Below, piece after piece: positions 2,891 to 63,100 of a DNA stretch of 64,000 bases. The DNA is taken from positions 1-64,000 of the IMG/VR virus record IMGVR_UViG_3300033153_005726; one strand, given 5' to 3'. This stretch comes from a virus. Lineage: Duplodnaviria > Heunggongvirae > Uroviricota > Caudoviricetes. The first letter of the stretch is position 1. Each line of letters opens with the position of its first letter. The notes beneath the pieces are model-generated. The model had not been told where the DNA came from, made no database searches, and saw only the letters and a program-made list of their open reading frames with translations. Position numbers and translations under genes: made by a program.

Positions 2891-2921
2891 AAGTAACTTG
2901 GCAGGTACATTAAAGGTATAA

Positions 2922-39039: not shown

Positions 39040-41394
39040 TTATGCAACATAATCAATATGTTGTTCTACGTTGAGTACTTGTTGAGCACTAAATCCTCCA
39101 GTAGAACGTGCAGCAGCTACACTAACTGATGTTACTTGTCCATACCAAACTTCCCCACGTTCTTTAACAGCAAGCATGTCTCCTGGTTTGAACAATCCCA
39201 TGCCACTACCAGCAGGACAAAGTACACTTAAACGAAGGGTGTGTTTTATCCACTCACCTACTTCACCAATAATCATTTTACCACGTTCACCTGCAGATTC
39301 ACTAGTAGTTAGTAGTTTATCAGTAATCATTGGGGCTTGTCCAGTATAATCAGAATTTCTCCACACTTTTGTAAATATAGAATCATCTTCTGCATCATCA
39401 CCTTCAACAAGTGTCCCATTAGACCTTACATTTTCTCCTATTACATGAACTTCATTATAATAAGGTTTTAGTTCATAACTCCTTGCTATTTCTACACATT
39501 GATCTTCAACAATACCAAAATAGTGATCTTCAGAACCATCCCATTTCCAAGGAGCATTTCTATACATAGGTTTTACGTGAAAAGTATTCTCACTGGCATC
39601 AGTTTGTATGTAAGCACCAATAGTATCGGTAAGTGTTTTCATTATTTCTATAGTGGTTTTATCTGTATAAGAGAATGTATCTGCAGGAATAAACCACATT
39701 TGATCATGTGCATTAAAACCACTTTCTATATCTTGATATCCAGTACCATAATCACGCCCTATATCTCCAGCAGACTCACCCCAGCTTGCAATCCACGATT
39801 CAAAATCGCTATGCCAGCCAGAAGCAGGAGTTTTATTTTCTATTAATGCATTAAATATCTGCCCTCCTGCATATGGAGTCGTTTCAACACCTGAATGTTT
39901 CATATCTATAGGATCACCAAACATTAATGAATGTGACCTGCCAACAACTGTCCAGGCATCTTTACCAAATGATCTATTTTCTGACCATCCCTCAACAACA
40001 CAATTCCATTTGTATCCATTTATTTCAATAACAATAACGACAAACACGCCATTATAAGGTTTCATTTTTTCAAGGCAATCACGAGAAGCGACTGTCACAC
40101 TAAACTGCCATAACCAACTATCCCTATCAATAGTGGCAGAAACAGCTAACACTTCAATTGGTGTGTTGGTTATATATTCTTTAACTAAAATTGAATTTAA
40201 CATATAATATACCTGTTGTGCTATTGGGAATAATCGGTCTTCTGGTTCAATTAATATACCTGAACCTGCATCTCTCCAACCTGTATGCCAATGACCAATA
40301 AAGGGACAACGTGGATTGGGATCTGATGTATAGGTAGTTAAATCAAAAGTAAGTCCACTACAAACATCAGGTGTCAATGGATATTTAGAAGGAAAATTAA
40401 ATGGAATAGAATAACATGCTTTTGGAGGCCAATAAATATCTCCAAAACATATTTTGTAATAACTAAAAGGCCCCCAGGCAATACATTTATTTGCGTCATT
40501 TGCATCTGGGGCATTCCATATAGTGTCAAAATGCCAATCATATGCTACAGGCTCATCAAATTTAGCGCACTTAGATATGTCATTAGGATCTGGGGCATTC
40601 CAAGGTACTGCAAAATGCTCATTAATGTATTCTAAATTAGAACCCCATAAAGCAGTATTATGTTCATCTATTATAGAAAACTGATCCCATAGGGCAGCTA
40701 TTGATAAATCCCATAAATCCTTAAATACACTAGCTGAAGAATGAACTGTATTGTCTAAATATTCCAATATAAACCATGAAAAACCTATAGATAAATCAGG
40801 TTTGTCTTCTGCTTTGAAAGATGCAGCAATTACACGTCTTCTATCTTCCCCATCACCAGCGGGAAATCTTTTAAGTGTATCTACACCTACATTACCTCCC
40901 CAACCAGTACCACAACCCTCTTCTGGAATTAAAGTGCTTGGTAAATGATGTTCTTCAGTACCCCGTATTAATGATTCTGTTGCACTAGTCAAAATAGTAA
41001 CATCATCTATCACCATATCAGGTAATATTTCAATGTCATGTAAAGGTAGCTCTATATTTATTTCTACATCATCTATCACCATATCAGGTAATATTTCAAT
41101 GTCATGTAAAGGTAGCTCTATATTTATTTCTACATCATGAGGTTCATGATGATACATAGGTTCTAGCAAATAGTCAAAAAATTCTATATTAATGTCAGCA
41201 TTGGCCGTATTAATAGTAGGTCCATTATGTACCCAACTTTCTTGAGCTTCAAGTACAATTTCAACATTAGCGGTATTAATATCTGGTGCTACATCCCCAC
41301 CAACATCAAAAGTAATGCTTGTACAGATAGGTGGAGTATACGAACCACTGCTATCAAAATCAAGTACATTACATATTGGAGGGGTATACGCCAT
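39040..41394 (-). CDS. baseplate/fibre structural protein with internal 22-aa tandem duplication
   Basis: ORF track; duplicated INIELPLHDIEILPDMVIDDVE. Confidence 0.45.
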   Translation of the reverse strand: MAYTPPICNVLDFDSSGSYTPPICTSITFDVGGDVAPDINTANVEIVLEAQESWVHNGPTINTANADINIEFFDYLLEPMYHHEPHDVEINIELPLHDIEILPDMVIDDVEINIELPLHDIEILPDMVIDDVTILTSATESLIRGTEEHHLPSTLIPEEGCGTGWGGNVGVDTLKRFPAGDGEDRRRVIAASFKAEDKPDLSIGFSWFILEYLDNTVHSSASVFKDLWDLSIAALWDQFSIIDEHNTALWGSNLEYINEHFAVPWNAPDPNDISKCAKFDEPVAYDWHFDTIWNAPDANDANKCIAWGPFSYYKICFGDIYWPPKACYSIPFNFPSKYPLTPDVCSGLTFDLTTYTSDPNPRCPFIGHWHTGWRDAGSGILIEPEDRLFPIAQQVYYMLNSILVKEYITNTPIEVLAVSATIDRDSWLWQFSVTVASRDCLEKMKPYNGVFVVIVIEINGYKWNCVVEGWSENRSFGKDAWTVVGRSHSLMFGDPIDMKHSGVETTPYAGGQIFNALIENKTPASGWHSDFESWIASWGESAGDIGRDYGTGYQDIESGFNAHDQMWFIPADTFSYTDKTTIEIMKTLTDTIGAYIQTDASENTFHVKPMYRNAPWKWDGSEDHYFGIVEDQCVEIARSYELKPYYNEVHVIGENVRSNGTLVEGDDAEDDSIFTKVWRNSDYTGQAPMITDKLLTTSESAGERGKMIIGEVGEWIKHTLRLSVLCPAGSGMGLFKPGDMLAVKERGEVWYGQVTSVSVAAARSTGGFSAQQVLNVEQHIDYVA
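41001..41132 (-). repeat. perfect 2 x 66-bp tandem duplication inside the 784-aa gene
   Basis: catcatctatcaccatatcaggtaatatttcaatgtcatgtaaaggtagctctatatttatttcta repeated head-to-tail. Confidence 0.6.
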
Positions 41395-41960
41395 TACGCA
41401 GGGTCTCTCACTACTACATCAAAAGTGAAGAAAATAGTTGTTCTGCCCGATTCAACATCATTATCACCACCAAGTGTCGTTTGAGCAGTAGTGACAAAAT
41501 GTAATGTTTTGGTAGCGTGTTCAAGTAATGCCGTATGACTCACTGTACCTGCTGTATGCGTCACTACACCCATCTTTTGAGCTACAATAAGTTTACGGCC
41601 ATCAGTGTCACCATCATCCTTTGAATAATCCCCTGAGACCATTGTCTCATTAACAAGAGAATAATTTTCATGTGATTTCCAAGTAACACCACCATCAGTA
41701 AATTCCTGGTCTTGTGTAGTTCCCCATCCAGGTTCTGTACCACCAGAATCACCAGCAACAATACATTCATAAATAAAAGCATTGTCAGATGGTGGATGTA
41801 CTAAATCACCTATAATATATGCTGTACTAGCTGTCCATAAATCAGGCCATACAGCATTAAAAAATGTTGTAGGCTGTGCATTACAGATAGCTTGTTCATC
41901 AGACAAAGCTATACTATCAAGTATTAAATCTAAATGTGCATCCGATAACCACTTAGCCAC
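41394..41960 (-). CDS. structural protein
   Basis: ORF track; ATG overlaps next gene. Confidence 0.4.
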   Translation of the reverse strand: MAKWLSDAHLDLILDSIALSDEQAICNAQPTTFFNAVWPDLWTASTAYIIGDLVHPPSDNAFIYECIVAGDSGGTEPGWGTTQDQEFTDGGVTWKSHENYSLVNETMVSGDYSKDDGDTDGRKLIVAQKMGVVTHTAGTVSHTALLEHATKTLHFVTTAQTTLGGDNDVESGRTTIFFTFDVVVRDPA

Positions 41961-46921: not shown

Positions 46922-47840
46922 TTCGGAAACTAGCTCCTATTTTAATAGCCATTCTATTGTAATAACTTACACTATTATTTTTAAAAGTATTAAATTGAAA
47001 TACTGTATTACTCCCAATAGTGTCAAAAAACGGATCAAACCGGAACGGTGTATACGTTATCGTATTTAATAATCCTGGTAATATCCCTATAGGATCAGCA
47101 GTAGTACTCATAGCCACCACAATATTTGTATATAAATACCTACCATTCACTGGGGATAATGCATAATTCTGACCGAAGGAAGATGAATTAACGGTTAAAG
47201 TGAGAGCAAGGGGATAAAAAGGAACAGATCCCCTATCATTAGTCCTTGGGTCTCGCATTAAATGTGTTGCATAACTATAATTTGGTTGAAAACGGTTTTT
47301 AAATGGATGCGTGTCTGTTATACTGCAATAAGCATAAGAAGTTTTTGTCATATCAATTGGGAGGTAATCACCAAAATAAACAATAGTAAAAATACCGTCA
47401 TGGACATTGCCTGATTCATACCCATTACACATAAGCCAAAATCCTTTCTCATCCCCAATAATATACCAAGATACATCGTGTTCGACATTGGTATATGATT
47501 TGACTATAGATTTATAGTCAGTACTTATAGAAGTTGCTGGACACGATTCCATGCCTGTATTAACATCTGACATAGTTTCATAACTAAGCACTGTTGCATA
47601 TTTTACGGTACCTCCGTATCCATTATCATCTATACGTAAGAAAAAACGGGTACCCTGTGAAGCCCTAAATACAGCTACATTATTTGGAATATCTTCAAAT
47701 TCTAAAGTATACCCCAAAGAAGCAGTTGAGCCATAACCATTAACCAATACAGCTTTTAATACAGATATTAAAGAACCTGTTGTATTGCTACCCATAGAAG
47801 GTGCATCTGTATCGGTTGATTGAAATAATCTACTAACCAT
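46911..47840 (-). CDS. structural protein
   Basis: ORF track; overlaps neighbours. Confidence 0.4.
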   Translation of the reverse strand: MVSRLFQSTDTDAPSMGSNTTGSLISVLKAVLVNGYGSTASLGYTLEFEDIPNNVAVFRASQGTRFFLRIDDNGYGGTVKYATVLSYETMSDVNTGMESCPATSISTDYKSIVKSYTNVEHDVSWYIIGDEKGFWLMCNGYESGNVHDGIFTIVYFGDYLPIDMTKTSYAYCSITDTHPFKNRFQPNYSYATHLMRDPRTNDRGSVPFYPLALTLTVNSSSFGQNYALSPVNGRYLYTNIVVAMSTTADPIGILPGLLNTITYTPFRFDPFFDTIGSNTVFQFNTFKNNSVSYYNRMAIKIGASFRNVN

Positions 47841-50800
47841 TATGAGCTATCTCCTCTTATCTGAATTGTATAATAATCAACAGGTTCTGTGGGTGGGGCC
47901 TGTAGTGTAGTCCTAATAAACCACAGTGGGAAATTAGCAGCATCAGTATTAAATCGTATACAGTTACCAGTAGCCCAACTAGAACCAAAACCATCTAACT
48001 TTATAACAAAATATGATTGGTTTGTTGTTGTTATTCCCTTTTCTTCATTGATAGGGAATTGTTTATTGTGAATAATTAAACACAATGGATCTAATTCACC
48101 TGGATACCCATAAACACCACTTACATTTCCTGGATAAGCTCCTTTAGCCCTAATAGCAGTTATTTCTTCCGAAGTTAATTCAGCAACTTTTACCTCATCG
48201 ACTGGATTCCCATCAACAATGCCAAGAGATTGAACACCAAACTTCTCTCCAATAACTGAAACTTTTGTGGTAGAAGTAAATTTAATTAACCACCGTTCTT
48301 TAATAGAAGGGGCATTAGTAACAGTGATAGGATAATCAACAAAATTATAACTTGCTAAAGGTTCTGCATCAATCCGTTCATCAGACCAAGTACCATCCCA
48401 AACAGATTGTTCAAATTCATTATATGCGCGTGCTTGCAAATCAGCAGAAGGAAGTACTGAAGAAACTAACGTACCATCAGCAGGGTAAGAATGAGTCAGT
48501 GCACTTGTAATTGCAATATGTCCAGTAACTTGCACATCAGAAGCAAGGCACATATCTTCTATGCGTGATAAAATAACCACATCACGGGGGGTGCTTTGCC
48601 CATCATACATGGCATTATGAGCAGTGCCAAAACCAGTACCACCATTATCTGGAAAACCTGCTAAAAATGTTACAGAAGCAGTCCGTATGTCATCATCACC
48701 AGTACCATCAAGAGGTTCTAAATTAACCGTATATTCGCCAGCTTCAGGTACATACTTAGGACAAGTTAAATCACCATTAAGTGTATCAAAAGCTGTAGGT
48801 AAAGCATACACTTCAATTAAATCTCTATTGGGATAAAGTGTAGCACCAGCATCTGTTATTATTTCAACCTTATGATCAACTGCCAATGGAAGTGTATTAT
48901 TATTATTTTGTGTGGCGCAAGGGTTGCCTTCCCAATCATCAATTTGAGAAGCATCCCTACTAAGTAAATCATCACCTTGTGGCCCACCTAAATCTTCACC
49001 AGTAGATGATACAGAATAATGAACAACAATAATATATCCATCCCTAAAAATAGGTACCCTACCATCAAGGGGTAGTCGTACAGGATCAAGTCCTAATAAA
49101 TCAGGATCAAGTGGAAGGTAGGAAGTAATAACGCAATTCATTAAAATAGTAGAAGCTCTAACTACATATGGTTTCCATACATTACCTCCACTCTCAGTAT
49201 TAGCATTATACCAATCTGCAGCTTGTGCCTCTGCATCATCCAGCACCCATGTACCAAAAGATACTTTGCAAAGTCCAGTGCTAAAATTGACATGTCCTAC
49301 TATTCCAGCACCAGTAATATCTCCTGAGAAGTCAGACTGCCCTTCAATTAAAGTACCACCACCAGTAGTACCACGAATAAAGGCACTTCCGGGACGTATA
49401 GGTGCTCCAGGAGCACGGAATACTAAAGTCATAGTAGGGTCTATGACACCACTACCAGCACAAAAATCTATTTCCATAGAAGCTATATTAATGGAATCAG
49501 AAATTATAGTAAATGTTTTCTGTGCATAATTTACTGTACCTACTTGTGTTTTATTTCCAACTATACCATCAACATGGGTATATAAGTTGCCATTAGTTCC
49601 ATCTACAATATGCTGACCAGCAGCACTTATGTGTAATCCTCCTGGAATTATCTCAAGGTATTTATCTGGTTTTATTGTATAGGTAGGAGCGATAGTACCA
49701 GAATAAGTATCAAAATTAGCACCATCAGTAGTGCAATAAGAACATGTAACTGATCCATCTGCTGGAAATGTAGAAGCGGCTGGTAAATATTCAATGTAAT
49801 CGAATACGTAACTCTCAACAACCCCAGGGTGCATCCACTCAGTAACCATCCAATCATACACAGCATGTGGAAATACACTAATCCTGTCAGGGTGGTACAT
49901 AATTTCACCAGTGGTGTAATTTATAGTACCTTGTACCCAATTATCTGACCCATCATCTATATCACCAGCAAAATTCCCTGCCCCATCATCTTTAAAAAAG
50001 TAAATTGGGTCTATTGTCATATCAATACGTGTTTCAGGATCGTATTCCTCAAGATCTGTATGCCATAATATATTGAAAGTTCCAGGTACAATAGGGGTAT
50101 TAGTCAAAGTCAAATGAATATGGCCTAAACCATCACGTGGAGGTGCTTCAAACACATCTGTAAAAGGGTCACCATAATTATATGATATGGTAAATACCTC
50201 AGAAGCCACAGGAGTGGATTGAGAAGCAGCGGGTTGTAACTCAACTTCACCAGTAGCATATTTAATACTACCTACAGTAATAGGAGAAGCAGCAGGACTC
50301 CAATCACCAATATCTGCAAGTTGGCATTCCCATGTAACTCCACCATCGTCAACAGTAGACCCTGGAACTATAGGCCAAGTAGGTTCGGAACTATTTGAAG
50401 TTCCAGCAACAGTACATTCATATGTGTAACCATTTTTAGTAATGGGTAGCACTTCATCAGTTAATTCATAAGATGTGCTAGCAATCCAGGTAGTAGCATC
50501 ACCAAAATCATATTCAGCATCTTGTAATAAACTATTACCATCATCTACTATACCATACTCATTGGCAGGTCCAGGTCCATTACCATCACCAACCCATGTA
50601 AACACAAACGTATTTCTCGCAACTCCATCATTTTCCGTGGTAAATTCATACTTAAGAGGCAATGTCTCACCTGATAGATCATACAATTCTGATGGTTTAG
50701 CCCAGAAAAAAAGCACCTGAGAATCAACATCTGGCATAGCACCTAACGTAATTGAAACAGAACCAGTATCATAATTAACAGAACCAGAACCTAGTGATTC

Positions 50801-52087
50801 GTTACCTTCAATGTTATTTTTTATCTGTCCATCACCTATATCCCATATAGAATACCATTTACCACCAGCAAGGAAATCTATTTTCAAACTTCCTGGTTGT
50901 GGTAATGGATTGCAACTAAATGTGTAAACAAATCCACGATTATTGGTATCAATTATAATGCCACCAGTTTCAGAAATCTGTTGAGGGGCACAAGCGGGAA
51001 TGTATACAGCAGATCCAGTACCAGAAGAAGTAATACCAGCATCACCAAAAGTGATAATACCTGTATCATATGCTATAGAACCTATTATAGTCCCGCCTAC
51101 AGATGGTGTCCATATATTATTTTGCCCATCATCTTCCAATGCCAGACCACCAGTCCAGCTAAAAGTTTTTGGTAAAACTCCCTCACCGATAAATAATTTA
51201 GCATTAGTGCTTATGCTATATTGAATACTTCTGGTAACAGTTGTTTGTGCATCCTCTGTTTGAATCATTGGTGCTATAGAAACACCAACTCCAGCATCTG
51301 TAATAGCAGTTTCTGAAGCTGCTGAAGGAACTAAAGCTGTTTGTATATCATCTACTTGTATTTGCAATTCACCAGCATTAGCATTTTCAAGTAAATTAGA
51401 AACACCATAATAACGAGAAGCATCTGCTGCAACCGTAGTATATATAGGGGTACTTTCCATATTATTCCAATCATAATAAATTTCAGCCCCATCAAGGTCA
51501 TTTGCTAATTGAGAACCTAATGTGATAGAAATATGATTTCTATAGTAGACATTCTCATCGTCTGTATAAAATTCAGTGAGTTCTGAAGATAAATCTATTA
51601 TACGGACATACTGTTCTGTCACACCTTCACCTAAAACAAGTACATCTCCTATTTCAGGGATAGGCCAATTTGCTAAAGTGATACAAGAAAGAAACGCAGT
51701 GCCAGCATAATGATTGCCCCATAATTTAATATTGGCACTTGGTCCTTTTACAAGATATGCTTCTATACGATCACGAGCATCCTCACGTACACTAAACCAA
51801 TCTTTATTAGAAAAGAAGCAAACCGACACATTAGGGTCTTTTGCCTGTTCAGTTATAATTGTGTGCGAACCATAGTACGTTTCTCTATTTGCAGTTTGTA
51901 CAGCAAGGTAAGCTTTACGCATTGATACCCGACCATATACACGATCAAGTCTTGAAATATCTGGAAACAGATTATTAACAACCCCATCAACAACTTCAAT
52001 AGAAGTCATTTGGCCACCACCTTGATCAGTATCATCAAGACGCTGTGATTCCATTAATTTAATATCTTCTTTATTTATGTCAGCCAT
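47840..52087 (-). CDS. giant tail tip / baseplate hub-like protein (1415 aa; Tal-like position downstream of TMP and Dit-like gene)
   Basis: Position and size; no motif-level confirmation. Confidence 0.4.
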   Translation of the reverse strand: MADINKEDIKLMESQRLDDTDQGGGQMTSIEVVDGVVNNLFPDISRLDRVYGRVSMRKAYLAVQTANRETYYGSHTIITEQAKDPNVSVCFFSNKDWFSVREDARDRIEAYLVKGPSANIKLWGNHYAGTAFLSCITLANWPIPEIGDVLVLGEGVTEQYVRIIDLSSELTEFYTDDENVYYRNHISITLGSQLANDLDGAEIYYDWNNMESTPIYTTVAADASRYYGVSNLLENANAGELQIQVDDIQTALVPSAASETAITDAGVGVSIAPMIQTEDAQTTVTRSIQYSISTNAKLFIGEGVLPKTFSWTGGLALEDDGQNNIWTPSVGGTIIGSIAYDTGIITFGDAGITSSGTGSAVYIPACAPQQISETGGIIIDTNNRGFVYTFSCNPLPQPGSLKIDFLAGGKWYSIWDIGDGQIKNNIEGNESLGSGSVNYDTGSVSITLGAMPDVDSQVLFFWAKPSELYDLSGETLPLKYEFTTENDGVARNTFVFTWVGDGNGPGPANEYGIVDDGNSLLQDAEYDFGDATTWIASTSYELTDEVLPITKNGYTYECTVAGTSNSSEPTWPIVPGSTVDDGGVTWECQLADIGDWSPAASPITVGSIKYATGEVELQPAASQSTPVASEVFTISYNYGDPFTDVFEAPPRDGLGHIHLTLTNTPIVPGTFNILWHTDLEEYDPETRIDMTIDPIYFFKDDGAGNFAGDIDDGSDNWVQGTINYTTGEIMYHPDRISVFPHAVYDWMVTEWMHPGVVESYVFDYIEYLPAASTFPADGSVTCSYCTTDGANFDTYSGTIAPTYTIKPDKYLEIIPGGLHISAAGQHIVDGTNGNLYTHVDGIVGNKTQVGTVNYAQKTFTIISDSINIASMEIDFCAGSGVIDPTMTLVFRAPGAPIRPGSAFIRGTTGGGTLIEGQSDFSGDITGAGIVGHVNFSTGLCKVSFGTWVLDDAEAQAADWYNANTESGGNVWKPYVVRASTILMNCVITSYLPLDPDLLGLDPVRLPLDGRVPIFRDGYIIVVHYSVSSTGEDLGGPQGDDLLSRDASQIDDWEGNPCATQNNNNTLPLAVDHKVEIITDAGATLYPNRDLIEVYALPTAFDTLNGDLTCPKYVPEAGEYTVNLEPLDGTGDDDIRTASVTFLAGFPDNGGTGFGTAHNAMYDGQSTPRDVVILSRIEDMCLASDVQVTGHIAITSALTHSYPADGTLVSSVLPSADLQARAYNEFEQSVWDGTWSDERIDAEPLASYNFVDYPITVTNAPSIKERWLIKFTSTTKVSVIGEKFGVQSLGIVDGNPVDEVKVAELTSEEITAIRAKGAYPGNVSGVYGYPGELDPLCLIIHNKQFPINEEKGITTTNQSYFVIKLDGFGSSWATGNCIRFNTDAANFPLWFIRTTLQAPPTEPVDYYTIQIRGDSS

Positions 52088-53508
52088 TACTGTACCCTCT
52101 TAAATTTTATATGACCACAATCAAATACCCTGCTAAACCCATTATTACGCATATTCTGAATTTCAGTTAAATCTGCATCAAACAAATCCAATTTAGCAGC
52201 CAGTTTGTTTTTCTGGAATTGTTGCCTTGACCCTAAGTAAGAACCCCCATGCACATAAAAATAATTCGGCTGTGTTACTTTATCTAATATAAACCCATTA
52301 TGCGTATAGGAACTTCCAGTGTATACACGTTGATCAACATAAGAATATGTTACCGTGGAATGTGCTAAGAGCCTAGAAAACCCACCAAGTATTGTTGTAT
52401 TTCTTGCTACTACATATCTGACTAACTCACCATCACTAGCTACTATAAGTAAAGCTGCTAATCTCTTCCCTGATATTAATCCTAAGTAAGATGATCCAGA
52501 ACGGAACCCATGTAAATGATGTTTTTCACAAAAATTTCTTGCTACTTTTGGTTCTACTGCCCTTAATTGTAATTTTCTAGCGAATAACCTTTTTTTATAC
52601 ATCCCTAATTTGTTTAAAATAATAGATTTTACTATATCTTTCTTATGCTTCCACTCAAAATCCCAAAACTGCATTAAATGTATATCAAGTGCAGCACATG
52701 CATCTGTTTTATTTTTATGGTACAATTTCCCCTTACCTGTATCTTCTGAGTGCCAGTAAATACCATTATATTCTATCGCCAATTTAAAATCCGGTAAGTA
52801 TAAATCAAGTTCTTTAGGTGCTATTATTTTTCTAGAACGTTCTATAACATGCACATCAAGAGAACGCAACCAAGTGACTAACTCAGATTCACCTTTAGAT
52901 TGCAATGTAGCACATTTTGGGCAGCACCAACCACGCATGTGGTTGGAAGCTATTTGGTCAAATACACCATGATCAGGACATACTATTTTAACAGTGGAAT
53001 GTGTAGTGGTATAAACAACCAAAGAATAATCATACTTATTTCCGTGAATGGCTTTAGACTTTTTAATAAACCCTTCAGTAGTGCCACGCAGGGTATTCCC
53101 ATTGAACTGTAAAGCACACTGTTTACATCCCTTACCACTAGTATGCCCACCAGCCCTTTGTCTAAATCCACCGTGCACAGGACATATTATAATAATAAAA
53201 CCACCATATCCATTGTACACAACTTTTGAATAATCGTATTTATCTCCATGTACTTCTTTAGCTTTTATCAAAAATGAATCAGTGCAATCTTTATTATTAA
53301 CAGAATTGTTTATGTCGGCACATTTTCTACACCCTTGTTTCATATTTATATGGGCAGAAGCTCTCTGAATAAAACTACCATGTACAGGACAAATAATAGT
53401 TACCATAGATTTAGAAGTACCTACAACAGAATCTGAATAATCAAAAATAGTGCCATGTATTTCTTTGGCCCATTTTATAAAATTCTCTGTATTCCATTTT
53501 TTACGCAT
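52087..53508 (-). CDS. DUF559/Vsr-like PD-(D/E)xK endonuclease with three N-terminal zinc-ribbon repeats (homing-endonuclease-like), embedded in the tail module
   Basis: Three repeats of xKAKExHGxKYDYSxVVY...ICPxHGxFxQ...H..GxGCxxC; then ELDLYLPDFKLAIEYNGIYWHS matching the DUF559/Vsr core; TAATG overlap with downstream gene. Confidence 0.55.
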   Translation of the reverse strand: MRKKWNTENFIKWAKEIHGTIFDYSDSVVGTSKSMVTIICPVHGSFIQRASAHINMKQGCRKCADINNSVNNKDCTDSFLIKAKEVHGDKYDYSKVVYNGYGGFIIIICPVHGGFRQRAGGHTSGKGCKQCALQFNGNTLRGTTEGFIKKSKAIHGNKYDYSLVVYTTTHSTVKIVCPDHGVFDQIASNHMRGWCCPKCATLQSKGESELVTWLRSLDVHVIERSRKIIAPKELDLYLPDFKLAIEYNGIYWHSEDTGKGKLYHKNKTDACAALDIHLMQFWDFEWKHKKDIVKSIILNKLGMYKKRLFARKLQLRAVEPKVARNFCEKHHLHGFRSGSSYLGLISGKRLAALLIVASDGELVRYVVARNTTILGGFSRLLAHSTVTYSYVDQRVYTGSSYTHNGFILDKVTQPNYFYVHGGSYLGSRQQFQKNKLAAKLDLFDADLTEIQNMRNNGFSRVFDCGHIKFKRVQ

Positions 53509-53517
53509 TACTTATCC

Positions 53518-54198
53518 CTAATCTACTGTGCAAGAACCATTTGGTCCTGTTACAGTATCACCAGAAGAAATGGTTCCTAATGCAACATATAATTGTAAAG
53601 TCGGGTCAGAAAAGCCCATTACGGTACCTATAACAATGGGATCACCATCACTATTAATAGTTTCACCAATATCGAATGTACCAGAAACAATTGTAACAGT
53701 TAAAGTTACATTTGCAGTACATGGTGAAGATGCTGAAGGTATTGCTTCCATAAATTTCAAATTTCTGACCTTATACCAAGCGGTCTGTTCAAAGTTATCA
53801 AATCGCAGAACATTCTCCAATTCAAGGGGAGGCGGTTCATAATGGCGAAACATAACATCATATTGAAATAATACATTACCAGTATAGGCACTGTCAACAT
53901 ATTTTTCATAACTCAAAACCATTGTACAACCAGCCGTATCCCGTAACTGCAATAGCTGTTCGCCAACACTGCGTTGAATCCAACCCATGTCATCTTTACC
54001 TTGCAAGGTAATAGGGCGTCCACGTAACTGGGTAGATTCTTGAATTACTAAAGCACCAGTAAGGGTAGTCTCAATAGTTTGTTGTACAGGTGCCCAACTA
54101 AATTCATCAACCCATTCCAAATCTTGTGGTAGTCGTATATCGAAAGATGGAGCATCACATTGAAGTCTCCACACATAATCTTCATAAACTATTGCCAT
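53518..54198 (-). CDS. tail component immediately downstream of TMP (distal-tail-protein-like position)
   Basis: Gene order only. Confidence 0.3.
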   Translation of the reverse strand: MAIVYEDYVWRLQCDAPSFDIRLPQDLEWVDEFSWAPVQQTIETTLTGALVIQESTQLRGRPITLQGKDDMGWIQRSVGEQLLQLRDTAGCTMVLSYEKYVDSAYTGNVLFQYDVMFRHYEPPPLELENVLRFDNFEQTAWYKVRNLKFMEAIPSASSPCTANVTLTVTIVSGTFDIGETINSDGDPIVIGTVMGFSDPTLQLYVALGTISSGDTVTGPNGSCTVD

Positions 54199-54199
54199 G

Positions 54200-57100
54200 C
54201 TACGACCTCATCTTTGCTAATGCTAAATCATTAAGTATTGAATCAATACCAGCTTGTGAACCATATAATTCTTCATGCTGTGTACCATTCACTGTTAATT
54301 CAAGTGAATGTTTAACTGATTCTAGAGCGGATTGTCGTACACTATTTTGTACTGTGCCAACAACACCACCAAGATTGAATCCAGGGATCTTAAAGTTGTT
54401 TAGTGCGTCAAAGAAACCAGCACCAAAGTGAGAAACAACGCCCTCTTTCATTACAAACTCGCCAGGGGTGAGAGCCGCCATAATTGAATCTTTTCCTGGA
54501 ATTGATGTGCTTGTATGCGGTACAGAACCACCAGTATTAAAACCAAATAATCCTTTACCAAGACGTTTTAATAATTCTTCAATTGAAAATGTTCTAGCTG
54601 TGCCAACTTCTTCTTTCATATCAGTGGCAGTATCCAAAGCTTTTAATGTATCTTCAGATGATTCACTAGCTAACTTATCTTGAAGGGCAGTTAATTCAGT
54701 TTGCGTTTCTTCTTTTTGTGATTCTGCATCAGTCTCAGCAGTAGCAGAAGCAGAAGCAACAGCATCTTCATAAGATGCAAGTAGGGAAGTCAATGAATCA
54801 GCGAGCGACTCATCAGCAGAATCAACAGAATCATTATAGGATTCTAAATAATCTGCCATGTCCTCTGCATAAGATTCATTCTCATCAGTATTACTGCCAT
54901 CATAACTTTCTAAATAATCAGCTAATGCTTCAACATGATCTTCATCGCGATCAGTTACATCTTCAGCATGATCAGTTGTATAATCACTCCAATCATCATC
55001 ATAATTAGTTTTAGCTTCATCATATGCGGCTTGGGCTTCATCAAGTTCAGCTTGTTTATCAGCCTCTGAAATAATCAAAGCAAGTGAAGAAATATCCTGG
55101 GTACCAGCAATAACGCCAGAAGTATTTGTTATTCCAAGGTCTTCTAATGAAGATAGTGATGAAAGCCAAGTAGACCACTTCTGGGCAGCTTCTTCTAAGG
55201 CTGTTTCTTTTTGGGTGGCGGCAGTGGCGTGATCAATACCATTTGCCATTTGTCTAACCCAATAACCCTCAATGGCACGTTCGTATGTACTCAAATCAGG
55301 TACATCGTACCCTTCATATGGATATGTATTGGACTCACCTCTCCAAGTACTAGTATCGCCATAGTTTCTGCCAGAAGTATTTATGTCTTCGGCAGCTTCA
55401 CGGGCACTGCTACGTGCATCTATTAAATCACCCCATAATTCATAATACTTATCTTTGTATTCATCATCAATATCAGCTTGCTCTTCTTCATAATCATCAA
55501 GGTTATCATTAGAATTTTCATCATAATCTGTTTCAGTATCAGTATAATCCTCAGTATCATCATCTACTGTATCATTATAAGACTCATTCTCATCTTCAAC
55601 ACTATCATCATATGTTTCTTGAGTATCGCTAAGTGTATCAGTGTTACTCTCATCCCTGTCATCTACAGATTCATTATAACTTTCTTTAGCATCTGCAACA
55701 GATTCATCATGATCTTCAGTGGTATCTACTACATCCTCATCATACTCAGCAGTAAGTGTAGCGATTTTTTCTTTTAATTCCTCAGAAATGGCAAGTAGGG
55801 CTGCTTGTTCTTTTGCAAGGATGGCAGCTTGCTCATAACTATCGCCTTGATTAGCTTTAGAAATTAAATCATCATAAATAATGTTGATTCCTTTCGTAGC
55901 ACTATCAAAATCAATAGTATTTATACTACCGCCATAAGCATAGCCATTCACTGTACTCGTAAAGGCATCTGTAAGCCTGTTCACTGACTCAACACCTAAT
56001 TCACTGGTAATGTCCTTTGAACTATTTGCGACCGTATTTTGAAAGTTTACGCTGTCTACATTAAGGTTAACGTCACGGCCTACTTCAGAACCAAACAATT
56101 CATAAAGGCGTTTTTTCATTGAGCCAATAACACCAGAAAGAACAGAACCACCACGTGCGAAATTCTGCACCACACTTGATGAGTCAAAATCAAACTGGAC
56201 TGGTCCACCTTTAGCGAAATGAGGTACGGCCTTCTTTGCCATCTCAATTGGATATGAACCTGAGTTGACCATATCCATAAAGCGTTTACCATATTTCTTC
56301 ACAGCAGCTACTTTATGAACAAACTCACCTTTCATCAGCATGGCAGGTACATCATCTTTACTACCACCACCCCTTGTTATGAATGGGTTGGCAAGTTTTC
56401 TGAATACACCGCCACCTGCATCAAAACCTTGTATTTCTCCACCATGTGCTCTAGCTTCAGAAGGTGGTGACCCTTCAGTTTTATATTTAGTGGTGATGGT
56501 GATAGTTTTATCTTTCAACTTATCAATAGCACTTTTAAGTTCACGGACTTTGTCAATACCAGTTACCTTTGCTATCACTTCTACAGTTTTGTTTACTAAA
56601 GAATCTATAAGCTGTTTTAAAGTAACAACATCCTCAGTGCCAGTTACATTTGCAACAACATCTACAACTGTAGGATTAGCTTGGTCTATTAAACCTAACC
56701 ATTCCTCAAGGGAACGCATATCATCAGAACCATTCACTTTCACATTTACTGTAATATCAGTGCCACCACCAAGTTCTTCTAACTGAGCAACAAACTCAGT
56801 AAAGTCCTCTTGAGAAAGTTGGATTGTTACTTCTGGCACTTCATCTCCAATAGCATTTAGTTTTTCTTTTATTTCATCTATCTTTTCAGTGGCAGGGGCA
56901 GCAGGAGAAGCAGCAAGTAGTAACTGGCCAGTAACCTCAAATGTCTCACCAGCTAGGGTCTGTAATTCAACCTTAGCTTCGTCAACGCCTTCAGTATTAA
57001 CAGCAAGCATTACACCTTCTTCTGGTAACACTTTAGGTAATTCTTCCAGGTCTTGCGTAGCTTTTTCTGTATCAGCCTCAACCTCCATTGTGACAGGTTC

Positions 57101-60100
57101 TTCGACAACCTTTTCTTCAACGTCGTTTACTATTTCTTCAGCTTTATCAGCAGAATCTTGTAACTTTTCTTGATCAATAGTAACTTCTTTTACAATAGGT
57201 TCTTTTAATTTATCAGTAGCTTCTATGGCCTTATCGGCATTTATATCAAGCTCACGCTTCTCGGCAGCTAAATCAAGAGAACCGTTTATTGCACCTAAAG
57301 AATTTATTATCTTATCAGTGGCACCTTCAACATTACTGAAAGGTTCAAATGGATTAGATTGAATATTTTTAATAAGACCCTTTGCAGCTTCTTCTGTTTC
57401 AGCAATTATCCTGATAGGCTTTTTATTATCCATAGTTAATTCTATAGACAACCCATCAACAGTTTCAGCATAATTCAATGCAACTTGGGTCATGTCGCTG
57501 AATACCCTGCTACCATCATCACCTACACCATTAAGGGTATTAACTATGTCAACCAATTTCTGTCTGGGGTCTGATGTATCCATACCCTCAAACATAGTAC
57601 TGAACTTATCTTTTATTGAATCAAGTTGCTTTCCATCTTCTTCAGTGAAAGTGAGAACACTATTGGCACGAAGTTTAGCACTTTCTTGACTGACATAACC
57701 AAAATAATCTTTCAGCTTTGCCCTCATGTCATCAATCTTCTTGCCTTCCTTGGTGCTGATCCCACCATCACTCTTTTTAGACTCAGCTATATAAGCAAGA
57801 AACTCTTGTTTAAGTTCACCGTATTTACCTTTTAATTCATCAACACGGGCATACTCTTCAGGCTTGGCAACAGGTGTGTCAGACAGAGTGCGTTTAGCTT
57901 CTGTCAATTCACTCATCAGTGCTTTATATTCAGTAACAGCTTCACGTTTGAATGTAAGTTCTGTTTCCACACCAACTGGTACACTTTCTGGCATAGCATC
58001 TGATAGGGTTTTCTTTACGTCAGATTGTGCTGGTGCCTCAATTGTTATCTTACCATACCAACCTTCACCAGAAGCTACTATTTCTTTAACAGAACCTAAT
58101 TCATCTTTAATGGTTTGGATAGTTGCTTTAGTATCTGACTGGACTTGCTTCATTCCTGTGCTTATACCGTTCCCAACACCACCTACATCACCAGAAGTTG
58201 TATTAGCAGTCTCACCAGTTTCAACAAGTGCAGCTTTTGCTTCTGCCATGGCAGCAACAATACTTTCAGCAGTTTCTTGACTAGCATCCCCAATTGCTTC
58301 AAATTCTTTAACTACATTGTCAGCAGCCCCATCGTCAGTACTGGCTGAGTAAGAAGCAGTTTGCCCACTTGCAGTTGTTATTTCACCAGTAGCAGCAGGA
58401 TCTTCAGCAGACTTTTTCTGAACCTCATCCAATTTACCTAGCAATTTTTCGTACAAGGCTAATTTTTTCTCATGTTCCAACACCTCTGTTTTAATGTTGT
58501 CCATCTCGAGTGTGTGGCGGGCTGCTTCTGCTTCTTCAATAGTTGTGTACAATTCTCTGTGCACACCCATTTCATCAGCAATTGATTCCCGCATTTCTTC
58601 TCTTGCATCAATCAAATCTTGCTGTTTCTTAGTTACATCTTCCGCAGCCTTTATTTGTACTGTAGCAAGTGCTTCTTCAGAAACACGTTTCTTTTCTATA
58701 GCTCCCTGCTCTGCTTCATAATCACCTACACCCTTCAAGCCACCTTCAGCTTTTTTGAGTACATTTGTGGTTCGAGCCATGGCACTTACAGATTGATTTA
58801 TGTTGCTGTAACCTTCAGCCAAATCCATTGCTTGTTCGGCCTTTTTCTTACCACGCTCTATGATTCCTTTATCATTCTTTTTGATACCTTCAGCAATGAG
58901 GTTATTGGCCTCACCTATTTTTTGTCTGTAGGCACTTTCATCATCACGCTCTTTTTCCCTGTCAGTCATTCCTTCTTGACGGCGCTTTCTTATCTTATCT
59001 TCAAGAGAATCATCAAGTGCAGCAATAGAATCACGTAAATCTTTTTCAGCCTCAAGCCTATCATCAGCTTGTTCAGCAAGGAAATCAGTTAATTCTTCTT
59101 CTATCTTCTCTTTATCTTTAGTTGCTTTTTCCCAAATCTTATCAATATCATCAGCAGCATCCTCTTCAAGATCTACGAGGTCTTCAAGTGCATCTTCATG
59201 TGCATTATTTTCTTTTATTAACCTTTTCTCAGTTTTCTTAATGTCATCCTTAACTTTCTCCAACTTACCATAAGCATCGACTGCCATGGATACTAATTTA
59301 GTATAGTGGGCACGATTAAGGTTTTGGATTACAAGTAGCTGTGCCTTTATCTTAGTGTCATTAAGTGTTGGGTTTTCTTTCAGGTCTGCTAAATGTTTCT
59401 GATCAAGTGCGAGCATAGATGCATGGTGCTGTTTTAATGCACTGAGTTTATCTTTTTGTGCTTGAACGAAATTGTTTTTATCTTGAGCTTCAAATAATGC
59501 AATACCCTGTAAACGATCAGCATACGCATTATCAATTACACCTTTCTGGTCATTGTAATGTGTTTCTAAATCAGCGATACGTTTTTTGTATTCAGTAGAA
59601 AGTTGTTGAGTAGTAGATGTTGCATACTCTAAAACAATATCCTGTAACTCTTCTTCAGCTTCCTTGATAGCTTCAGGGTCGGTGCCAGCCTGTTTAAGCT
59701 GGAGAACTCTAGCACTGGCAATATTAATTCTTTCATCAAATGACTTATTAAGGGCTTTCTTTTTCTCAGCGTACCCTTCCTCTTCAGTCTTTGTTTCATT
59801 CTGAACAGCAGCTTCTATTTCTGCATTACGTCTAGCCAATGCATCCGCTATATCATCAACTAAGATATCATAAGTATCAACTATATTTTCAATGTGTTCT
59901 TGTTGATCATCCTCAACCTGTTTATTATGTTGGGTAATAACTTCAGTTTGGGCGTTGGTAGCTGCAGTCTTGGCATCAGTTTTTTGCTGTTCAGCATCAA
60001 TGACATCTTTAAGGTCTACCCCTTTAATGCCAGCCATGTCGTCTGCATGTATTTGAGCAGCAAGATACATGGCAGCTTGAGCTTTCATCTTGGCTTCTAC

Positions 60101-63100
60101 AATAAGACGGTTATGCTCATCTTCGAGGTTAGCATCCCGTGCAGTGGCTTGCTTTAAATCAGCAGTACGTTCAGCCAATTTAGTTTTTATGACTTTAGTA
60201 GCAGCAGTATAAGCAGTGTTGACAGCCTCTACTTTACCTTTAAGCTCATCAGCATCAGATTTCTCATAACCCTCACGCTGAGTTTTTAATGCCTCAAGGT
60301 ACTTACCTTCTGCTGAAAGCATTTGAGTGTGGGCTAACTCAGCAGCAGTAGAATCTGCACCATACATCAGTACAAATCTATCATAGGTAGCCTTACGTAT
60401 TAAATAAGACCTATCGGTAAAATCATGCTCACCGTTTATTTTACGCTCTTTATATTCAGCATCAGTGATTTCATCATTTTCACGTTGCCTTTGCAGTTCT
60501 ACATAATACGCTTCATAGACACTTTTAAGTTTAGCGATACGGGCTTCATCTTCCTTTATTGCTTTTGCAGCATCACCAGAACTACCAGCACCTAATTGTT
60601 GTAATTTTTTGTTGTATTTTAATTGCAACAAGAACGTTTGCTTAATAAGTTCGTCTTTATCTTTATGTTCTTTCTTAAGTGCAGCAGCTTCTTTTTCATA
60701 AGCAGTAACCGCTTTCATGATACCTTTAGCTATTGCAACAGACCTATGAGCAACAGCACGTTCAGTTAAATCAGTGATCTTATTGATCTCATCTTCTTCA
60801 ACTGTGGCAGCTTCTTTATTGATTCTAAACACTTCACTCATGTATACTTCATAAGCTTGTGTCTTTTCTTTCATAACATCAGAATCAGAAAGACCACCTG
60901 CTGATTCATCTAACTTGGCAAGTTCTTTAATTGCTTTCACACGTTGATCGTACACATTCGTAGCTTCATCGTATTCATCAATTAATTCTTGCTTACGTTT
61001 ATCTATACCTTCAAGGACTTCCCCATTAACTAATTTGTATACATCCCTAAACTTTTCTAAAGAAGCCAAACCAGTAGCTTCTAATGTTTTTATTTCTTTT
61101 TCATTATAAAAAGAATCGAATGGAGAATCAAAATCAAGGTTTTCTTTATTAAACTCTTTTTTCCAAGTCCCAATAATTCCTTCAGTAGCTTCTTTTATTT
61201 TAGATTCAGCACTTGCAGCAGAGTCAACTATTTTATCAAAAGCAGCCGACAAGAAATTAATTTCTGATTCCCCTAAATCTAATGTTTGTATACCCTTTGT
61301 AAATTCTTCTATAGAATCACCAGCAGCATGAGAAGCTTTAGCATAAGCAAGTAGCCCTGCTTTAGAAGTAGCTTGCATCTTAAGTGATTCACCTAAAGCA
61401 TCTTTGTACCCCTGCAACTCAGTCCTAAGTTTATTTAGATTAGCACCTGAAGAACTGAAAAACTTTTGCATAGTAGTGCCAGTGGCTTCAATTTCTTCAA
61501 ATCTATCTATATCTTCTTTTAATTTAGTAACCCAGTAAGAAGCAGAATCCACTTCTTTTTTTGATTCACGTAAAGCGTCTGCAAAAGACTTTACCCCTAG
61601 TTCAGCTTTTCCCTGACTCAATTCTTTTTGGACAGCTATATATTTACGAAGTTCGTCTAAATTAGCAGTAGTTTCTTCAGTTACTTCTGCCATAACTTCG
61701 CCTTGTTTATTTAAAGACAAGGTAGTAGCTGGTACTACTTTTCCAAGTTCTATTTCAGCTTCTATCCAAGCTGCTGAACCTTTCTCACCTTCGGTAAATA
61801 CTTTTTCTAGTTCTTCAAGGGATTTTATCTCAGAATTCAATGCATCTACAACTACAGAAGTCTTCTTTGCTAATTCTAAATGGTCTTCCGCTGTTTTGCC
61901 GACTATAGCTTTGTACGCAAAAAAACCAGCTACAGCCACAGCTATAACGGCACCAATGCCAGTAAACATCGTAGCAATCCCAGCAAAACCAATAGTGGCA
62001 GTTCCAGCAGCAGCACCAGCAGCAGTTGTGGCAGTGGCAGCAGTGGCAGCACTACCTGTCAGTGCAGCAAATCCCACTGCTGCTGTTCTTAGCACTGTTA
62101 TTAAACCAGTAAAATATGTTGTAAGAAATTTAACAAATCCCCCCGCCCCTGATATAGCACCAAACAAGGTCATGATCTTAAACAACGCTGTGAAAGCAAC
62201 AGCAGTGCTAAGAAGAACTTGCATAAGGACTTTATTCTCAACAACTAGTTTACCTACTGCAATGGCAATCTCACCAAAAATAGCAGCGATGCCAAGCATA
62301 TCACTTGCCCAATCAGCCAACTGTACTTTGTTTTCTCTAATTGATTTTGTTAATCCACGTATAAATTCTAATACAGTAGGTTCTATTTCACGCCCAAACT
62401 CAATCGCCATTTCTTGCCAAGCAGATTTAATCTGACGTAAAGCACCACCCATACCAGCTTCCATATCACGGGCAACCCTAGCAGAAACTCCTTCAGAATT
62501 CTGCATGGAAACTAAGAATGTATTAAGTGCATCTTCACCTTGATTAATCAAAGCAGCCATTCCAGGTCCAGCACGCTTACCAAAGATTGTGATGATGTCA
62601 GAAACATCTGCACCAGCAACCTTAAATTGATTGAGAATGTCAATCATAGAAAGCATGTCACCACTTGAATCTGTTACTGAAATACCAAGTGTTTCAAGTG
62701 ACTCACTAACTCTCTTAGTAGGCTCAAGTAAACGGGTAATCGCATTACGCAGTGTCATACCAGCTTTAGATGAATGGTAACCAGCTTGAGCCAGACCAGC
62801 AAGTAATGCACCAGTTTCTTCAAATTCTATATTTGCAGCAGAAGCCAGTGGACCAACATACTGAAAAGCAGTACCAAGTTGCTCAAGGTTTGTACTGGAA
62901 CTTGTAAATCCTGTGACAAGTACATCATTGATGCGTCCTAAATCATCAACTTCCATTTTATAACCACGTAGAATGTTCGTGGTTATATCAGCAGCCCTGC
63001 CAATATCCATCATGCCAGCAGTAGCTAATTGGAGTACGTTAGGAAGTGCACCTATGGTTTCTTCAACAGAAAAACCAGCCATTGATAACTGACGAGCTGC

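Follow-up and report, generated by a model that had tools for sequence, protein, structure and literature searches.

A probable Hef-like homing endonuclease gene with a Mom-like domain between two late tail genes of a siphophage-like genome

Genomic context of the endonuclease gene

The window, a stretch of 64,000 nucleotides from the Caudoviricetes record IMGVR_UViG_3300033153_005726 (positions 1 to 64,000), contains an ATG-initiated ORF for a 473-aa protein within a tail gene module (Table 1). The upstream neighbor encodes a protein whose homologue comes after the tape measure gene in related siphophages, and the 3149-aa tape measure protein itself (PHROG match, E 8e-78) is also encoded upstream. 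A match to PHROG 559 ('HNH/homing endonuclease') over residues 1-470 (about E 8e-103) and more than 6000 homologues in databases, the best of them 49% identical, demonstrate that the ORF is not a chance reading frame. PHROG 3339 ('homing endonuclease') also matches (E 2e-84). In tblastn searches the protein hit 942 phage records, with names including 'Hef-like homing endonuclease', and its closest annotated phage homologues are called 'Hef-like homing endonuclease', 'homing endonuclease EDxHD' or 'nuclease/acetyltransferase'. An NCBIfam scan of the protein returned 0 families, and tblastn against the whole window did not find a second copy.

The order of zinc-ribbon repeats, nuclease core and C-terminal domain in the original prediction, as well as the predicted overlap of the stop codon with the start of the 1415-aa tail gene, were confirmed. 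The TAA stop occupies 52089..52087 and the ATG of the tail gene 52087..52085; the Shine-Dalgarno-like AAGAGGG in front of this overlap sits within the 3' end of the endonuclease gene. A scan of 51500..54500 for promoters and terminators found nothing above the shuffled expectation and no sign of a promoter of the endonuclease's own. The GC content of the gene is 34.3%, about 4 points lower than in the flanks (38-39%), and its GC3 equals that of the flanking genes. Megablast with 47000..56000 as the query found nothing among 50,697 phage records, and hence no close DNA relative on which co-conversion tracts could be finely mapped.

Table 1. Features of the endonuclease locus, with positions in the window.
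Feature	Coordinates	Strand	Evidence
Probable Hef-like free-standing homing endonuclease gene, 473 aa + stop	52087..53508	minus	ORF; PHROG 559/3339; tblastn
Zinc-ribbon repeat 1, residues 1-68; probable ligands C40, H43, C60, C63	53305..53508	minus	Protein repeat alignment; DNA repeat families D1/D2; Pfam DUF723 (E 5e-6)
Zinc-ribbon repeat 2, residues 69-137; probable ligands C109, H112, C128, C131	53098..53304	minus	Protein repeat alignment; DNA repeat families
Zinc-ribbon repeat 3, residues 138-203; probable ligands C177, H180, C196, C199	52900..53097	minus	Protein repeat alignment; DNA repeat families
Vsr-like (EDxHD-type) nuclease domain, residues ~204-300; candidate active-site residues E207, D235, E246, N248, H253, H264, K267	52609..52899	minus	
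Mom-like GNAT-fold domain, residues ~301-473	52090..52608	minus	
Upstream neighbor, 226-aa post-tape-measure tail protein	53518..54198	minus	PHROG 4408
Downstream neighbor, 1415-aa tail protein	47840..52087	minus	PHROG 6128/9261
Upstream junction: TAG stop of the 226-aa gene (53520..53518) and 9-nt spacer GGATAAGTA	53509..53520	minus	Sequence; empty-site comparison
Downstream junction: Shine-Dalgarno-like AAGAGGG, then TAATG stop/start overlap with the 1415-aa gene	52085..52101	minus	Sequence

Domain architecture

Each of the three tandem repeats carries the pattern CPxHGxFxQ...H...(G)C..C, and the probable zinc ligands, as read from this pattern, have the form C-x2-H...C-x2-C. In repeat 3, C177, C196 and C199 are invariant among 46 aligned homologues and H180 is at least 90% conserved. 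The predicted number of three repeats stands, but their period is 68-69 aa instead of about 60 aa, according to both the protein alignment and two 3-copy repeat families (D1/D2) at the DNA level, which are spaced by 204/207 nt and 64-73% identical. Homologues contain 1 to 11 copies (mode 5-7), and other phages have the same zinc ribbons joined to GIY-YIG and T5orf172 nucleases. The repeats are a portable module, and their variable copy number and these fusions count in favor of a homing endonuclease.

The assignment of the core to a Vsr/DUF559-type nuclease was borne out by domain searches. A profile of the family has a single match in the PDB, the Vsr-like catalytic domain of I-Bth0305I (3r3p; E 2.9e-6). 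This match needed the family profile, as phmmer with the single 473-aa sequence against the PDB returned chance matches only (E > 0.5). Similarly, 37 of the 46 homologues match the Pfam family MTES_1575, seven match DUF559 (best E 6e-5) and six match Vsr, while the 473-aa sequence itself matches none of these three at E<=1. The likeness to DUF559 is of the superfamily (Vsr-like) level. The motif DLYLPDFKLAIEYNGIYWH spans residues 235-253, and D235, E246, G249 and H253 are invariant in the 46 homologues; conservation at the catalytic positions ranges from 83 to 100% (E207 91%, D235 100%, N248 83%, H253 100%, H264 98%). In the family-profile alignment, D196, N208 and H213 of I-Bth0305I correspond to D235, N248 and H253. 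A point against the assignment is that the last Asp of the EDxHD motif (D222 in I-Bth0305I) aligns to the conserved His264, at a loop where the HMM alignment could be shifted. Because the catalytic domain has the Vsr/REase fold, the 'HNH' label of PHROG 559 is a misnomer for this protein; the label was rejected on the grounds of fold and motifs, and an HNH Pfam match was not found at E<=1. I-Bth0305I (PDB 3R3P), the EDxHD prototype, is homologous in the catalytic domain. However, it is intron-encoded, uses NUMOD/HTH DNA-binding motifs and has its nuclease domain last (PMC3239194), whereas the 473-aa protein is free-standing, contains zinc-ribbon repeats and an extra Mom-like domain, and has His264 aligned to D222. 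Nor is it a very-short-patch repair endonuclease like E. coli Vsr (1VSR/1CW0), which is a mismatch-repair nickase.

A separate C-terminal domain had also been predicted correctly, but it comprises about 170 aa (roughly residues 301-473) rather than about 190 aa. It adopts a Mom-like GNAT fold in which most equivalents of the Mom active site are conserved. The best Foldseek match in the PDB is Mom of phage Mu (8BV8; E 4e-5), and aligning the family profile with that of Mom in hhalign gave E 1.1e-4 with a probability of 57%. The Pfam Mom model PF25680 matches 9 of the 46 homologues (best E 7.6e-7) and does not match the 473-aa sequence itself at E<=1. The domain has the extra helical insertion before the last strands of the GNAT fold: residues ~428-458 form two helices positioned as in Mom, where this insertion is essential (PMC13219725). 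H58, E108, R111, D149, R151 and Y159 of Mom align to H331, E361, R364, D392, R394 and Y401. Seven residues are catalytically important in Mom (H58, Y59, R111, S124, D149, R151 and Y159; PMC13219725). Five of them are matched here (H331, R364, D392, R394, Y401), with 98-100% conservation in the 46 homologues, but S124 aligns to a variable hydrophobic position (L374, 30% conserved) and Y59 to Ile/Leu (I/L332). Conservation thus does not extend to the counterparts of S124, Y59 and W48, and ~18 residues of the Mom region 84-107 are missing. Moreover, Mom is a stand-alone protein, whereas the Mom-like domain shares its polypeptide with a nuclease and a DNA-binding array. This domain may bind the target by flipping out an adenine, mediate dimerisation, or truly modify adenine. 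At least 80% of a query comprising the nuclease and Mom-like domains was covered by one place in 369 of 416 phage records. The C-terminal domain is thus family-wide and not peculiar to the copy at 52087..53508.

Empty sites in related phages

In the related loci L003, L001/L004, L005, L006 and L007 and the distant L002, the tape measure gene is followed by homologues of the 226-aa and then the 1415-aa gene. The two latter genes are only 4-20 nt apart in every related genome recovered; these are just five or six distinct genomes, whose flanking proteins are 50-64% identical to those described here. Searches for the endonuclease by tblastn gave no match in any of L001-L007. As the site is empty in all related genomes recovered, the endonuclease gene is an insertion. 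Its presence at this position is not universal, and the directly adjacent tail genes in every recovered relative agree with the original prediction that a free-standing homing endonuclease has invaded the tail module. The site between the post-tape-measure gene and the 1415-aa tail gene was occupied in no other genome examined.

The junctions provide further detail. The empty site reads TAGGAATAAATT-ATG in L001/L004/L007. Removal of 53508..52088 in silico leaves the spacer TAGGGATAAGTA-ATG, which agrees with the sequence of L004 at 9 of 12 positions. The segment 53509..53520 therefore corresponds to the original spacer and ribosome-binding site that precede the 1415-aa gene in endonuclease-free relatives. 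In the relatives, this spacer and ribosome-binding site serve the 1415-aa gene; here the endonuclease gene has captured both and supplies the 1415-aa gene with a new Shine-Dalgarno-like sequence and the TAATG overlap. At such divergence, the junction alignments contained no discriminating polymorphism from which the target site could be inferred.

Relationship to Hef-like homing endonucleases

Homologues occupy various genomic positions. Genomes of Campylobacter phages contain up to 12 copies each of the nuclease and Mom-like module. A 47% identical homologue (P0021) is located at a different site and in opposite orientation within the morphogenesis module of another phage. In the T4-like Escherichia phage vB_EcoM_G8, gene G8_00232 sits exactly between nrdA and nrdB and shows the same TAATG overlap. 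Its product is 36% identical to residues 201-470 of the 473-aa protein (E 2e-40), but its N-terminal ~240 aa are unrelated to the three DUF723/DUF4379 zinc-ribbon repeats found here. The nrdA-nrdB intergenic region is presumably also the position of mobE in T4. The locus of G8_00232 appears to be the one where hef is reported in U5, and a tie between the 473-aa protein and U5 Hef, to our knowledge the one experimentally characterised member of the Hef-like family, would be positional and transitive. Sandegren et al. (2005), in a title cited in PMC2988022, report that hef replaces mobE in U5 and that Hef is experimentally a homing endonuclease; Hef cleaves nrdB (PMC2988022). Hef-type enzymes were placed in the Vsr-like EDxHD family by Taylor et al. 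(2011; PMC3239194). F-LimVII of Dickeya phage LIMEstone1, which is classed as Hef-like (PMC3296691), is 32% identical to the nuclease and Mom-like module (E 4e-30, 98% of the query), and this module matches at four places in the LIMEstone1 genome. The authors of that genome described four Hef-like endonucleases, two of which are beside baseplate or tail-tube genes (PMC3296691).

The 473-aa protein shares the nuclease and Mom-like core of the Hef-like group (U5 Hef, F-LimIII/VII/VIII/X of LIMEstone1, the copies of Campylobacter phages CP220/NCTC12673, and G8_00232), as the matches to G8_00232 and F-LimVII show. Like the gene described here, those of the group are free-standing, intergenic, located beside a conserved gene (tail genes in LIMEstone1), and present in some related genomes but missing from others. 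The gene is most likely a free-standing homing endonuclease gene (HEG) whose product belongs, within the Vsr-like 'EDxHD' family, to the Hef-like branch, and it represents a precise, ORF-sized insertion of ~1.42 kb into the short spacer between two late tail genes.

The original prediction had left room for a domesticated function because of the tight coupling and the extra C-terminal domain. The gene could then be a component of the tail module, such as a virion-associated nuclease or a DNA modifier needed for infection, and its co-transcription and translational coupling with tail genes, with neither a promoter excess nor a terminator in 51500..54500, would be in line with this role. Yet none of the recovered related genomes has it in the tail module, its C-terminal domain is not copy-specific, and a T4-like phage shows identical coupling at a locus that is not structural. 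The TAATG overlap between nrdA and nrdB identifies tight coupling as a habit of the family and not as a sign of domestication. This hedge is thus unsupported, and domestication is extremely improbable.

The insertion is not demonstrably recent, as the GC content is only slightly lower than in the flanks and GC3 is equal; nor is recent mobility demonstrable with a nearest relative, in any collection, of 49% identity. Codon-position GC equilibrated with the host genome suggests long residence. This, the small number of zinc-ribbon repeats at the low end of the family range, and the lack of a close relative elsewhere might indicate a decaying or inactive HEG relic, which is kept only because its deletion would disturb translation of the 1415-aa gene, whose Shine-Dalgarno-like sequence lies within the endonuclease ORF. 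Such a relic is quite unlikely, however, since the reading frame is unbroken and none of the three domains is incomplete. Residues that are invariant or nearly so in the family all occur in this copy as far as they were checked, among them D235, E246, H253 and K267, the zinc ligands and those of the Mom pocket, and AlphaFold gives a confident model over the full length (mean pLDDT 91.7).

Homing or restriction-modification

Fusions of Mom domains to REase-fold nucleases in jumbo phages have already been described computationally by Iyer et al. (2021; PMC7824862), who read them as devices for restriction-modification-like protection and attack and not for homing, and who cite phage PA5oct with five such enzymes. 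The PA5oct proteins have the same domain combination as the 473-aa protein, although the latter is encoded on a ~86-kb siphophage-like contig and not by a jumbo phage. A 'putative homing endonuclease' of PA5oct is a strong structural match (TM 0.60, query-normalised; 369 alignment columns), and matches were found at five places in the PA5oct-like phage Ettore. The gene could accordingly encode a single-polypeptide weapon, whose Mom-like domain hypermodifies the phage's own adenines ('momylation') while the nuclease degrades unmodified DNA of the host or of superinfecting phages. It would then benefit the phage instead of being selfish. The high conservation of the five Mom residue equivalents and the placement of the two-helix insertion are compatible with this function, but the essential S124 of Mom aligns to a variable position and Y59 to Ile/Leu, and the equivalent of D149 is Asn in the T4-like nrdA-nrdB copy. 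Furthermore, a weapon leaves unexplained why a genome should contain up to 12 paralogues at scattered intergenic sites beside conserved genes, and why the gene is strictly present or absent at a precise intergenic site. It also conflicts with the experimental report of U5 Hef as a homing endonuclease, as expressed in the title cited above. This interpretation is therefore considered unlikely.

Restriction-modification need not exclude homing, because modification could provide self-immunity to an HEG. It is conceivable, if rather doubtful, that Hef-like enzymes are single-polypeptide 'modify-self, cut-other' homing elements with a catalytically active Mom-like pocket. The C-terminal domain would then hypermodify an adenine of the resident genome within the recognition site, perhaps through an aminoacyl-tRNA-dependent chemistry like that of Mu Mom. 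The HEG-bearing phage would be immune to its own nuclease, and the unmodified alleles of co-infecting relatives would be cut. We know of no modification activity for any Hef-like protein.

Proposed homing mechanism

As a homing endonuclease gene, the insertion would share the transcript of the tail operon, and its translation would start from the inherited ribosome-binding site. When a HEG-less relative co-infects, the zinc-ribbon array would bind at the junction or close to it; the highly conserved 5' end of the 1415-aa tail gene is the most plausible target. The Mom-like domain, a DNA-binding and base-flipping fold, may assist in this binding. The Vsr-like domain would cut by means of D235/H253 and neighboring residues, and recombinational repair from the HEG-bearing genome would copy the gene with flanking markers into the recipient.

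Implications for phage homing endonucleases

As a member of the already known Hef-like family, the gene is most likely an ordinary selfish HEG, and Mom-nuclease fusions, too, have been described before. As a probable selfish insertion and not a tail component, it should be disregarded when the tail module of this phage is read. It would offer a clear case from nature of an HEG inserted with ORF precision, which re-uses the ribosome-binding site of the displaced gene and supplies that gene with a new one. The protein also links two usually separate descriptions of one family, as 'Hef-like/EDxHD homing endonucleases' and as 'Mom-REase fusions'. If true, the modify-self reading would merge the logic of restriction-modification with that of homing and reconcile the two literatures. 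In 2026, Mom of phage Mu proved to be a tRNA-dependent DNA adenine aminoacyltransferase. The strong conservation of the Mom-like pocket across hundreds of phage homing endonucleases thus poses a concrete and testable question: whether the pocket serves the binding of a flipped adenine, DNA modification, or mere dimerisation.

Architecture and Family Assignment of the Endonuclease

The 473-aa gene encodes a free-standing homing endonuclease of the Vsr-like type (EDxHD, Hef-like) and lies inserted within the tail operon (see table). In an alignment of 46 full-length homologues, the number of N-terminal repeats varies, D235, E246, G249, and H253 are invariant, and the C-terminal domain is strongly conserved. 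Searched against the PDB, the profile of this alignment matched 3r3p alone (E 2.9e-6), a structure of the catalytic domain from the intron-encoded endonuclease I-Bth0305I; its mutated catalytic positions D196 and H213 align with D235 and H253. I-Bth0305I is the basis of the Vsr-like "EDxHD" family of homing endonucleases, which includes the phage Hef-type enzymes (Taylor et al., 2011; PMC3239194). Among the 46 homologues, Pfam models matched were MTES_1575 (REase; 37 proteins), DUF559 (7), and Vsr (6), and the window protein itself matched DUF723 only. These domain searches support the Vsr/DUF559-type nuclease core, with the motif DLYLPDFKLAIEYNGIYWH at residues 235-253, that the original prediction had proposed. 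The protein also matched PHROG 559 "HNH endonuclease" (E 8e-103) and PHROG 3339 "homing endonuclease" (E 2e-84). Because no HNH-like feature was detected, the former label is a misnomer for this protein. Homologues were found by tblastn in 942 phage records, under annotations that include "Hef-like homing endonuclease" and "endonuclease-like protein", and a metagenomic protein collection contained more than 6000 (best identity 49%). Megablast of positions 47000..56000 against 50,697 phage records revealed no close DNA relative.

Upstream of the endonuclease gene lie a 226-aa gene and the tape measure gene (PHROG E 8e-78), and downstream follow the 1415-aa protein (PHROG 6128, E 2e-283), a "tail assembly protein" homologue, and more large structural genes. 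One base is shared by the stop codon of the endonuclease and the start codon of the 1415-aa gene, which is the TAATG overlap described originally. A tblastn search of the whole window with the protein found no second copy, and a scan of 51500..54500 found neither a promoter excess nor a terminator around the gene. Its composition shows a GC dip of approximately 4 points, GC3 equal to that of the flanks, and no other signature. The tape measure is very long; those of relatives reach at least 1700-2000 aa within the recovered stretches. PHROG 20658 "head decoration" was matched by residues 526-587 of the 1415-aa protein (E 1e-12) and by part of a 188-aa ORF (E 2e-11). On the basis of these matches, the two proteins may share a small decoration-type domain (a segment of ~60 aa in the tail protein).

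Coordinates of the features discussed (window positions unless a related locus is named)
Feature	Position	Strand	Description
Endonuclease ORF	52087..53508	-	473 aa encoded
Endonuclease stop codon	52089..52087		TAA
Start codon of 1415-aa gene	52087..52085		ATG
1415-aa tail gene	47840..52087	-	PHROG 6128
Tape measure gene	54200..63649	-	3149 aa
188-aa ORF	41394..41960	-	partial PHROG 20658 match
590-aa ORF	16003..17775	+	thyX with probable intein
226-aa homologue, related locus L007	960..1439		159 aa
1178-aa gene, contig L010 (ena:ERZ27227323:k141_100659)	10946..12003		adjoins portal gene
Endonuclease homologue, vB_EcoM_G8 (L012)	2775..4367		between nrdA and nrdB
nrdB pieces, vB_EcoM_G8 (L012)	4367-5044, 5658-6137		small ORF between

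Zinc-Ribbon Repeats

The N-terminal part of the protein consists of three tandem repeats (residues 1-68, 69-137, and 138-203). Their number and zinc-ribbon nature are as first described, but they are 68-69 aa long and not ~60 aa. According to the predicted model, each comprises an N-terminal helix and a beta-hairpin; each also carries the pattern CPxHGxFxQ...H...(G)C..C. At the DNA level the repeats remain detectable, forming two families of three copies each, spaced by 204/207 nt and 64-73% identical. Pfam matches of the window protein and its homologues identify them as treble-clef zinc ribbons of the DUF723/DUF4379 type. A motif count in the 120 best homologues gave 1-11 copies, mostly 4-8, and in many high-scoring homologue matches the repeats alone are the shared part. 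In the viral structure library BFVD, the same repeats occur in giant-virus proteins and are fused to GIY-YIG and T5orf172 nucleases and to "restriction enzymes". Examples are a GIY-YIG fusion in Klebsiella phage Miami, a T5orf172 fusion in Escherichia phage navn, and proteins of mimivirus, Klosneuvirus, and related giant viruses. Joined to several nuclease types, the array thus behaves as a portable, presumably DNA-binding module, and in this role it appears to be common to several classes of homing endonucleases.

The Mom-Like C-Terminal Domain

The C-terminal domain, found throughout the family, is of the Mom-like GNAT type. A domain at this position had been predicted, but with ~190 aa and of unknown function; it measures ~170 aa. 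Profile-profile comparison of the 46-member alignment with an alignment built for the Mom family (Mom is the DNA-modifying enzyme of phage Mu) gave an E-value of 1.1e-4, and the Pfam Mom model PF25680 directly matched 9 of the 46 homologues (best E 7.6e-7). H331, E361, R364, D392, R394, and Y401, conserved at 98-100% in the alignment, align with Mom H58, E108, R111, D149, R151, and Y159, and five of these six count among the positions that matter for Mom activity (H58, Y59, R111, S124, D149, R151, and Y159; PMC13219725). In the predicted model, a two-helix segment (~428-458) occupies the position of the HTH-like insertion of Mom, which is essential and predicted to bind DNA (PMC13219725). A fully Mom-like active site is disfavored, however, because the essential S124 aligns with L374, a variable hydrophobic residue, Y59 aligns with Ile/Leu, W48 of the dimer interface lacks a conserved counterpart, and the T4-like homologue of vB_EcoM_G8 has Asn at the D149-equivalent position (SYGNRR versus SYVDQR of the family). 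Judging from these residues, the domain may serve in DNA modification, only in the binding of a flipped adenine, or in dimerization of the enzyme. The Mom-nuclease fusion is not new: Mom domains fused to REase-fold nucleases were reported in jumbo phages, including five copies in PA5oct (Iyer et al., 2021; PMC7824862), and a PA5oct "putative homing endonuclease" was among the best structural matches to the predicted model.

Insertion between Tail Genes

The flanking proteins, used as queries, led to seven related loci, which represent five or six different genomes and whose flanking proteins are 50-64% identical to those of the window. All share the order tape measure, 226-aa homologue, 1415-aa homologue, with a gap of only 4-20 nt between the latter two, and tblastn detected no endonuclease match in any of the seven. 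This presence/absence pattern, with the tail genes adjacent wherever the endonuclease is missing, supports the proposed invasion of the tail module by a free-standing homing endonuclease. None of the other genomes examined carries an insertion at this site.

The junction in the relatives consists of stop, spacer, and ATG, for example TAGGAATAAATT-ATG in three loci (L001, L004, and L007), and that of the window reads TAGGGATAAGTA-ATG(endonuclease ... AAGAGGGTACAGTA)ATG. The two line up, so that the endonuclease ORF begins at the former position of the tail-gene ATG and has inherited its spacer and ribosome-binding site. The last codons of the endonuclease provide the displaced 1415-aa gene with a new Shine-Dalgarno-like sequence. 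Around the junction, conservation is highest over the first ~27 residues of the 1415-aa protein, from which we infer that the 5' end of this gene is the most plausible target. In L007, the 226-aa homologue is shortened by the C-terminal ~65 residues, yet its junction with the large tail gene hardly differs from that of L001 and L004.

A Probable Intein in thyX

In the 590-aa ORF, residues 472-578 match Pfam Thy1 (flavin-dependent thymidylate synthase; E 4e-30) and residues 201-478 match an intein splicing domain (E 1e-16). Part of the intein region resembles PHROG families of HNH endonucleases, and NUMOD3 is matched weakly as well. From these matches, the ORF looks like a thyX gene interrupted by an intein that carries a homing endonuclease, a second selfish element of the genome. 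The listed TTG start of the ORF is probably not the true start.

Behavior of the Hef-Like Family

The nuclease and Mom module (residues 200-473) matched 416 phage records, in 369 of which a single place covered at least 80% of the module. Copies occur at up to 12 places per genome in Campylobacter phages and at five in the PA5oct-like phage Ettore. The four places in LIMEstone1 equal the number of Hef-like endonucleases reported for this phage, two of which adjoin baseplate-wedge and tail-tube genes (PMC3296691, Table 1). P0021, a homologue with 47% identity, is located at a different site and in opposite orientation, inside the portal-to-tape-measure module of another phage. On the same contig, a 1178-aa gene has weak intein/LAGLIDADG Pfam matches, which suggest another intein-bearing gene.

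The homologue in Tequatrovirus vB_EcoM_G8 (36% identity, E 2e-40 over the nuclease and Mom module) has no zinc-ribbon repeats, its N-terminal ~240 aa being unrelated, and sits exactly between nrdA and nrdB. In T4 this is the position of mobE, and the gene occupies the locus where hef of the T-even phage U5 is reported. By its title, the study of Sandegren et al. (2005; as cited in PMC2988022) describes the replacement of mobE by U5 hef, and Hef cleaves nrdB (PMC2988022). The nrdB of vB_EcoM_G8 is annotated in two pieces. The stop of the homologue overlaps the nrdB start, again as TAATG. Tight stop/start coupling is thus a habit of the family that minimizes polar effects on the host operon. The suggestion that this coupling and the extra C-terminal domain hint at domestication is not upheld, as the same overlap recurs at nrdB and the Mom-like domain is family-wide. 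The 473-aa gene is a new, divergent member of the known Hef-like family.
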